NCBI GenBank assembly: GCA_026165385.1
Contig: GCA_026165385.1_4524.3
Reading direction: 5' to 3' (one strand)
DNA length: 20,506 bases
Origin: a phage
In this document: piece by piece, positions 19,185-19,382 of the stretch
Position numbering within the stretch: the stretch's first letter is position 1
Layout of the letters: every line of letters starts with the position of its first letter
Notes under the pieces: model-generated
Seen by the model: the letters and a program-made list of their open reading frames with translations, nothing else
Database searches by the model: none
What the model was told of the DNA's origin: nothing
Program-made: the position numbers and the translations under genes

Positions 19185-19382
19185 ATGTTTAAACTTCCAT
19201 CGTTAATCAACGCTATTAAAGGCAATAAAAAGAAAACTGCTATCGCTGCAATAGTTGTAGGTGGCATTATTTCATGGAACTTCGGGATTGCACCATTGTT
19301 AGTTGCCCATGGTATTATAGTTCCTTCTGTTCCATTGGATACTGTAGTTGATTTGGCCTTTGCTATTATAGGGCTTGTTTAA
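19185..19382 (+). CDS. Small membrane protein, 65 aa, the only plus-strand gene in the window
   Basis: Strong SD (TAAGGAGATATT-ATG); two hydrophobic segments after a Lys-rich N-terminus; fills an otherwise non-coding 283-bp gap; its stop overlaps the primase stop (TTAA). Confidence 0.6.
   Translation: MFKLPSLINAIKGNKKKTAIAAIVVGGIISWNFGIAPLLVAHGIIVPSVPLDTVVDLAFAIIGLV

Follow-up and report, generated by a model that had tools for sequence, protein, structure and literature searches.

A conserved small membrane-protein gene with a putative late promoter, convergent with the primase gene in T4-like phages

The 20,506-nt stretch of phage DNA analyzed here (contig GCA_026165385.1_4524.3; referred to below, at its full length, as the window) carries, in the interval between gene 56 (dCTPase) and gene 61 (DNA primase), a 65-codon open reading frame (ORF) that an earlier note, made from the letters of the window, had singled out as a small membrane-protein gene lying on the opposite strand to its neighbors. 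The ORF is present on the plus strand with an ATG start, as described, and both its strand and its character as a small membrane-protein gene were borne out. We find that it is a genuine protein-coding gene, a member of the PHROG 2024 family and the ortholog of RB69ORF029w of phage RB69, and hence an ordinary member of a family that is already catalogued yet uncharacterized. Taken together, the data are best explained by a genuine late gene for a bitopic membrane protein with an accessory role in the cell envelope, a reading that we regard as somewhat probable.

The 65-amino-acid (aa) product, MFKLPSLINAIKGNKKKTAIAAIVVGGIISWNFGIAPLLVAHGIIVPSVPLDTVVDLAFAIIGLV, matched the PHROG 2024 profile (function unknown) with an expectation value (E) of 1.9e-27, residues 1 to 65 aligning on positions 1 to 65 of 65, and the corresponding proteins of phages T4, Marfa, Moon, and Entb_45 matched the same profile at 1e-15 to 5e-31. 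A tblastn search returned matches in 693 phage records, 686 of them with at least 80% coverage. When the 56-61 interval was compared across T4-like genomes, the ORF was found to be kept in at least nine genera, and the poor conservation among relatives that the earlier note had named as an outcome counting against the gene was not seen. Substitutions in the frame are mostly synonymous, and the ratio of nonsynonymous to synonymous substitution rates (dN/dS) is 0.10 to 0.15 in the more diverged within-genus pairs; the window differs from locus L009 by 11 synonymous and 4 nonsynonymous changes (dN/dS 0.10), and T4 differs from locus L012 by 9 and 4, respectively (dN/dS 0.12). The frame is thus under purifying selection.

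Relatives' records call the gene a hypothetical protein, and in the RB69 record it is RB69ORF029w. Nolan et al. (2006) placed RB69ORF029w among their novel ORFs, with one transmembrane (TM) segment predicted by TMHMM at residues 21 to 41 (PMC1524935, supplement). The window gene belongs to the same family and has the same size, strand, and place between 56 and 61, with no material difference from RB69ORF029w. Whereas that study treated it as a phage-specific novel ORF, the family as delineated here also spans a T4 ortholog and a second subfamily.

T4 itself encodes a 66-aa ortholog with 54% identity at NC_000866 17738..17938 on the plus strand (L003 2739-2939), within the 309-bp spacer between dam and 61. 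It is preceded by a strong Shine-Dalgarno sequence and a GATAAATA box, and its stop codon overlaps that of gene 61 by the same 4 nt as in the window. Nothing is annotated in the dam-61 spacer in either NC_000866.4 or AF158101.6; a recent T4 assembly annotated with Pyrodigal (OZ209023) calls the ortholog and tags it as phrog 2024. The T4 record also agrees with the statement in the earlier note that T4 carries dam between 56 and 61, and its remark that no methyltransferase is present here is correct, the 56-61 gap of the window containing only the 65-aa ORF. In one further T4 record, T4_ev240 (LR597657; L035 1410-1465), a 1-nt deletion in an A-run turns AATAAGAAACG into AATAAAAACG and shifts the frame after codon 17. 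This may be a real inactivation or a homopolymer sequencing error, and we did not use it as evidence of dispensability.

A profile search resolved two subfamilies, A and B. Members of subfamily A share the pattern ..AIKGNKK..WNF..AP.A.AHG.. and come from Tequatro-, Mosig-, and Gaprivervirus, while those of subfamily B start with MGTIFYQIWKL.. and come from Dhaka-, Gapriver-, Marfa-, Kanagawa-, Mosuguk-, and Gelderlandvirus and also from many Klebsiella and Enterobacter phages. The two occur in tandem in Gaprivervirus TH41, 8 nt apart and ∼20% identical to each other (L005 3001-3198 and 3207-3407), and the A and B paralogs of phage ESCO47 (P0006 and P0114) are likewise in tandem. In CJ20, VR20, RZ, SP18, and others, copy B has been shortened, put out of frame, or deleted altogether.

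The position of the gene is equally well kept. It lies on the plus strand and is convergent with the primase gene in Tequatro-, Mosig-, Gapriver-, Dhaka-, Marfa-, Kanagawa-, Mosuguk-, Moon-, and Gelderlandvirus as well as in uncultured relatives, and it abuts the primase 3' end on that strand in every T4-type genome inspected. The DNA between the gene and 56 is variable, with nothing in Mosigvirus, dam in T4, mobE in IME08, and at least one hypothetical gene in Marfa, Moon, and Kanagawavirus.

A spurious ORF arising by chance within an AT-rich promoter spacer would be in keeping with a frame of only 65 aa that the T4 reference leaves out and that no Pfam family covers (no match at E ≤ 10 for the window and T4 proteins). 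The conservation data effectively refute this explanation, to which we assign a negligible chance: the frame is under purifying selection, its Shine-Dalgarno sequence and start are kept, it has a dedicated PHROG family, its motifs persist across subfamilies at ∼20% identity, its synteny is conserved, and it has tandem paralogs. Other family and structure searches added little. NCBIfam gave no match at E ≤ 5 for the window, T4, Marfa, and Entb_45 proteins, a sequence search of the PDB turned up nothing beyond chance resemblance to the TM helices of acetylcholine receptors (E ∼0.5), and Foldseek against viral structures returned solely family members, one of them auto-named 'Holin'. Several records give members of the family evidently wrong product names, 'dCTP pyrophosphatase', 'DNA packaging ATPase', 'thymidylate synthase', and 'Holin'; the misnamed records include Salmonella phage CGG4-1 (L024 2501-2725) and rows H108, H115, and H124. 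These names were probably carried from neighboring genes or by automatic transfer.

Across genera, the regions upstream of the gene have almost nothing in common beyond the Shine-Dalgarno sequence (GGAG or GGAGG ahead of the start codon in nearly all genera compared) and a box of the form nATAAATA, which is found 16 to 29 nt before the ATG in 16 of the 18 upstream regions compared and is replaced by ATTAAATA in two genera. In the window, this conserved promoter-like box ends 21 nt before the ATG, which gives a predicted transcription start at ∼19169. A late box shortly upstream of a Shine-Dalgarno sequence and an ATG, with no requirement for a −35 element, is the arrangement that marks T4-type late genes, and it is present here. 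The window box departs from the consensus by an A at −13, the commonest natural variant in the T4 late-promoter list: among the 50 T4 late promoters listed by Geiduschek and Kassavetis, 32 match the consensus perfectly and 9 carry an A at −13 (PMC2988020). Nolan et al. found position −13 to be poorly conserved, T or A, in RB69-type phages (PMC1524935).

The ATAAATA core occurs only twice in the window, both strands counted, versus 8.6 ± 3.1 expected, so that it appears to be avoided elsewhere in the early region of the window. The other occurrence is a perfect TATAAATA at 18559-18566 on the minus strand, 31 nt before the soc ATG. No sigma-70-like promoter was found on the plus strand. The conserved box, together with the absence of such a promoter, leads us to infer that the 65-aa gene is a gp55-dependent late gene inside an early cluster, with AATAAATA acting as its promoter and a leader of ∼15 nt. 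T4 soc, a known late gene, would then be a close parallel, since it is likewise a small gene with its own late promoter in a prereplicative region, with the core directly upstream of the Shine-Dalgarno sequence and the ATG. It differs in lying on the minus strand, in having a perfect TATAAATA, and in encoding a soluble capsid decoration protein.

The earlier note had described two hydrophobic segments in the product, and only the first of them holds as a TM segment. Hydropathy analysis gave a single hydrophobic span at residues ∼18 to 41, with K12 and K15 to K17 before it and D52 and D56 after it, whereas the C-terminal segment (residues 54 to 65) cannot cross the membrane because its 12 residues are too short to do so. 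A two-TM hairpin was rejected on the same ground, the second segment being not only short but also acidic, with D52 just before it and D56 within it. The AlphaFold2 model, built from a 23-sequence alignment, has a predicted local distance difference test score (pLDDT) of 84.8 and helices at residues 3 to 11, 15 to 41, and 51 to 62. Residues 1 to 17 are basic and amphipathic (K12 and K15 to K17), the loop at residues 42 to 50 contains the conserved G43, P47, and V49, and the helix at 51 to 62 is acidic and amphipathic (D52 and D56). The prediction is therefore of a single helix that crosses the membrane, with a second, short helix at the C terminus that is acidic and amphipathic, and on insertion into the membrane, it would adopt an N-in, C-out orientation according to the positive-inside rule.

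W31, N32, P37, and P47 are invariant in the 23 T4-type members, and V49 and G63 come close to invariance. When the distant members described below are added, P37 is still invariant and W31, N32, G43, and P47 are at least 90% conserved. An invariant Trp-Asn pair in the middle of a helix, together with Pro and Gly, is expected of a helix that packs against other helices. The window protein carries the complete family signature, namely, a basic N terminus, ∼12 hydrophobic residues, W-N-[FLY]-x3-P-x5-G-x3-P-x-V, and an acidic residue, within a total length of 50 to 82 aa.

Outside the T4-like phages, relatives are few. An exhaustive hidden Markov model (HMM) search of 1.84 billion cluster representatives recovered only 17 clusters, which makes this a small family, and the farthest clusters still match PHROG 2024 at 1e-9 to 6e-11. 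A scan of IMG/VR yielded only 9 loci, a word-indexed protein search returned close relatives only, and when the distant members served as tblastn queries, no cultured phage came nearer to them than the T-even proteins do. In three of the distant lineages (L030, L031, and L032), the small gene comes last in a row that begins with a large tail gene (in L031, a lambda-J-like tail tip) and continues with a gene for a protein of 94 aa with TM and coiled-coil segments and then with Endonuclease VII. In two related lineages, the small gene is followed by genes for a 180-aa basic protein and a ∼107-aa protein, and a T4-lysozyme-like endolysin ends the same operon in L025/L026; the distant member P0133 heads such an operon, with the small gene followed by 180-aa, 109-aa, and T4-lysozyme-like endolysin genes. 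Given this primase-independent context of the distant members, the family is not tied to primase. On a 2.2-kb metagenomic contig (L029 129-1383), another distant member, P0131 (59 aa), lies directly upstream of a gene for a 352-aa RelA/SpoT-domain protein.

The 56-61 region of the window is 98.9% identical to that of Escherichia phage ChristianSchoenbein and 97 to 98% identical to those of HX01, phi25-307, and other Mosigvirus (RB69-like T-even) phages, and by this measure, the window phage is an RB69-like T-even phage (Mosigvirus). Across the span of the window, ChristianSchoenbein, the closest annotated relative, has 38 coding sequences (CDS), from ac, ndd, denB, rIIB, and rIIA through soc, 56, and 61. 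All but one, 37 of the 38, are on the minus strand, and the sole plus-strand CDS is the counterpart of the 65-aa ORF, in line with the earlier description of every other gene as minus-strand. The remaining particulars of that description, a 283-bp gap between 56 and 61 (19096..19378), a near-consensus Shine-Dalgarno sequence (AAGGAG), and a stop codon overlapping that of primase, also proved accurate (Table 1). The plus-strand TAA occupies 19380-19382, and that of primase is complementary to 19379-19381, so that bases 19380-19381 are common to both stops and the two ORFs overlap by 4 nt. An identical overlap is seen in T4, Marfa, IME08, Moon, Entb_45, PEi26, and copy B of TH41, and the ORF-primase overlap is bigger in Q7622 and PM2. 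In the 89-bp spacer of the window, we noticed by eye a MotA-box-like CGCTTTA on the minus strand (complement of 19148-19154), separated by 12 nt from TAGAAT (complement of 19130-19135; the pair spans 19130-19154) and lying ∼35 nt upstream of the gene 56 ATG. From this pair, gene 56 might be transcribed as a middle gene, with the two promoters, middle and late, pointing away from each other.

Table 1. Coordinates of features in the 56-61 interval of the window, of the upstream boxes, and of loci outside the T-even phages
Feature	Location	Strand	Remarks
Predicted small membrane-protein CDS, 65 aa	19185..19382	+	ATG start; PHROG 2024; ortholog of RB69ORF029w
Putative T4-type late-promoter box AATAAATA	19156..19163	+	consensus TATAAATA at −13..−6; A(−13) variant
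Shine-Dalgarno AAGGAG	19174-19179	+	5 nt 5' of the ATG
Gene 56 (dCTPase)	18574..19095	-	phrog_173, nucleoside triphosphate pyrophosphohydrolase family; divergent from the 65-aa gene
Gene 61 (DNA primase)	19379..20401	-	phrog_47, E = 4.5e-101; convergent with the 65-aa gene
Overlap of the two convergent stops	19379..19382	both	4 nt, TTAA within TTTAAA
Candidate terminator / 3' stabilizer hairpin	19415..19481	+	stem 19415-19473, then U-rich tail
Upstream box AATAAATA	this window		
Upstream box GATAAATA	T4, PM2		
Upstream box CATAAATA	Gaprivervirus, PEi26		
Upstream box TATAAATA	Marfa, IME08, Q7622, Entb_45		perfect; rest of spacer diverged
Upstream box ATTAAATA	Moon, CGG4-1		
Non-T-even loci of uncultured phages	L025 3237-5610, L031 3260-5082, L030 3272-4159, L032 3263-4153		

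The overlap of the ORF and primase stops is certain, and any plus-strand RNA from the gene must cross the primase stop; the candidate terminator lies 33 to 99 nt inside primase. The hairpin starts 33 nt after the ORF stop and ends at +91, within the last ∼30 primase codons, and has a folding energy of −20.7 kcal/mol (z-score of −2.9). Comparable hairpins are found in T4 (L003 2975-3027), TH41, PM2, and Entb_45 (z-scores of −2.6 to −4.7), the positions in L005 (TH41), L020, and L023 being equivalent to that in L003; that of Marfa is weak and IME08 has none, and of 7 lineages folded as single sequences, 5 gave a significant result. The Gaprivervirus hairpin folds far better on the plus strand, which can form G·U pairs, than on the primase-sense strand, which has C·A mismatches there. 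RNAalifold gave no consensus for the downstream hairpin, and a fixed-register count of pairs (70.7% versus 69.4% in shuffled controls, a value reached by 95 of 500 shuffles) gave no significant covariation. For this reason, we did not accept the hairpin as an established conserved RNA element. It may be a terminator or 3' stabilizer of the late transcript or an element of the primase mRNA.

This layout raises the possibility that the gene acts chiefly through its RNA, the late plus-strand transcript being complementary to the primase mRNA 3' end and helping to shut off or destabilize gene 61 expression late in infection, with the ORF being secondary. The two genes are convergent with overlapping stops and no terminator between them, the first hairpin with a U-rich tail falls within primase codons, the gene stays next to the 3' end of primase in at least nine genera, its other flank being variable, and both T4 strands undergo transcription at differing times at several sites (PMC2988020). 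However, conservation that is due to RNA pairing and not to coding is not what we see, with a dN/dS of ∼0.1 and amino acid motifs kept at 20 to 50% identity, including in sequences only 20% identical. In CJ20 and CGG4-1, the ORF is present without any overlap with primase, and the linkage is more simply explained by the absence of intergenic DNA between two 3' ends. A purely antisense role is also unlikely because the neighbors of distant homologs are Endonuclease VII and tail genes and do not include primase. We thus judge it improbable that the gene serves primarily for antisense regulation, although its transcript may act in antisense on the 3' end of primase as a secondary matter. Compared with the late antisense transcription known in T4, the transcript here differs in carrying a conserved, selected ORF and is thus primarily a messenger, to which an antisense effect, if there is one, would be incidental.

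We therefore return to a late membrane-protein gene, for which the following course of events can be proposed. Transcription would proceed clockwise from the gene's own gp55-type late promoter (AATAAATA, 19156-19163), and yield a short leader with a strong Shine-Dalgarno sequence. The product would be a 65-residue bitopic inner-membrane protein with its lysine-rich amphipathic N terminus on the cytoplasmic side, one TM helix whose invariant mid-membrane Trp-Asn pair, Pro, and Gly are typical of helix-helix association, and, facing the periplasm, the short acidic amphipathic helix. The transcript would run antisense at least 33 to 100 nt into the primase gene and may stop at the hairpin with the U-rich tail.

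As for what such a protein would do, we tentatively suggest an accessory, oligomerizing late envelope protein, involved, for example, in lysis timing or holin modulation, and not the holin itself. Two distant members, P0131 and P0132, match phrog_3427 'holin' at E = 5e-4 and 2e-3, respectively, and 3 of the 23 members weakly match the last third of Pfam GTA_holin_3TM (PF11351), with a best E of 0.03; distant family members weakly match the last TM segment and tail of three-TM holin profiles. The endolysin-linked operon in one distant lineage gives weak support for a role in lysis. Like the T4 holin T and antiholin RI, the protein is small, membrane-located, and presumably late, with polar residues in its TM helix, and the predicted N-in, C-out, single-TM topology is the same as that of T. 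Unlike T and RI, it has no large periplasmic domain, and it differs from PF11351 holins in having one TM segment instead of three and no charged C-terminal tail.

By sequence, the window protein falls into none of the holin families searched, no holin model being matched even at E ≤ 5. It also lacks the combination of a TM segment with a charged C-terminal tail that typifies holins, its C terminus (AFAIIGLV) being hydrophobic and uncharged and its basic cluster being N-terminal, and the gene does not cluster with endolysin and spanin genes in the window or in the T-even relatives, where it lies between the dCTPase and primase genes.

A number of observations weigh against a late envelope protein with a part in lysis timing. 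On the side of expression, the window box is only a 7-of-8 match, the in silico RB69 late-promoter list of Nolan et al. (2006) omits the site of the 65-aa ORF, and the shorter loci of T4 and Marfa show no shortage of the ATAAATA core, which is why we rely on the positional conservation of the box as the main and stronger argument. Full-text literature searches on T4 small ORFs and ribosome profiling (Ribo-seq), late promoters, antisense transcription, the T4 transcriptome, RB69ORF029w, and unannotated T4 genes, only some of them aimed at such evidence, found no experimental transcript, protein, or phenotype for the gene. The second paralog decays in a number of genomes of the Gapriver and Dhaka types, which suggests that a phage with two copies can do without one of them. 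On the side of function, the holin-profile matches fall short of curated thresholds (for GTA_holin_3TM, 15 bits versus a cutoff of 24.8), and the window, T4, Marfa, Entb_45, and Moon proteins have no PHROG holin match at E ≤ 5. In T-even phages, a long distance separates the gene from e, t, rI, and the spanin genes, and the other distant lineages adjoin tail-tip and Endonuclease VII genes and not lysis genes. Finally, the T-even lysis system of t, e, and spanins is already complete and T4 t mutants do not lyse, and for the latter reason, the 65-aa protein cannot be a sufficient holin.

A different role for a small inner-membrane protein would be in superinfection exclusion or antidefense, in the manner of Imm or Sp, whose genes are a few kilobases away, blocking the entry of secondary phage DNA or countering a host membrane defense. 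The genome region is rich in accessory genes, with Sp, Imm, and Dmd just upstream of primase in relatives, and the siphovirus-like distant contigs place the gene shortly after the tail-tip gene, a location where exclusion genes are often found. T4 Imm and Ac resemble the 65-aa protein in size, membrane location, and accessory neighborhood but differ in being early and minus-strand and in having no sequence similarity to it, and Imm has two TM segments. Exclusion is required from the first minutes of infection, whereas the gene is predicted to be late, with a conserved late box and no plus-strand sigma-70 or MotA-type promoter, and it is for these reasons that exclusion of the Imm/Sp type is disfavored. 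The protein also shows no similarity to Imm, Sp, or the PADLOC-style families tested (PADLOC itself was not run), its sole family match being PHROG 2024, and both its conservation and its synteny are unusually wide for an arms-race gene. We consider such a role unlikely.

We rate as slightly less likely still that the protein is a morphogenesis or virion-associated membrane factor, such as an assembly anchor or a hydrophobic component of an ejection apparatus or channel. Late expression would suit a structural or assembly gene, and distant homologs lie between the tail-tip gene and a gene for a protein weakly matching the 'minor tail protein' family phrog_1924 (E = 7e-8 and 6e-4). The phrog_1924 matches are marginal, though, and the T-even gene stands outside any structural module. 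Its absence, after decades of genetics, from the structural and assembly gene sets of T4 counts for less, given that it is unannotated in T4.

What is new here is the T4 ortholog, the conserved putative late-promoter box, and the predicted single-TM architecture with its invariant residues, together with the two subfamilies with tandem copies and the primase-independent context of the distant relatives. T4 is the reference organism of the group, and its curated records leave the 309-bp dam-61 spacer empty despite the conserved ortholog. Omics or genome-wide knockdown studies that use the T4 reference annotation miss the gene, and its addition would correct that annotation in a minor but genuine way. 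Because the putative late-promoter box is conserved, the class of expression lends itself to direct testing.

More speculatively, and with a likelihood that we consider rather low, the conserved late single-pass protein might be an unrecognized component of the late envelope that modulates holin triggering, lysis inhibition, or membrane energization, its mRNA perhaps serving as a late antisense brake on primase; it would then represent a new functional class that is shared with unrelated tailed phages and travels with Endonuclease VII, tail, and endolysin genes. The gene would be another uncharacterized small phage membrane protein unless the proposed role in lysis timing or the envelope is true, in which case it would add an extra player to one of the best-studied lysis systems.

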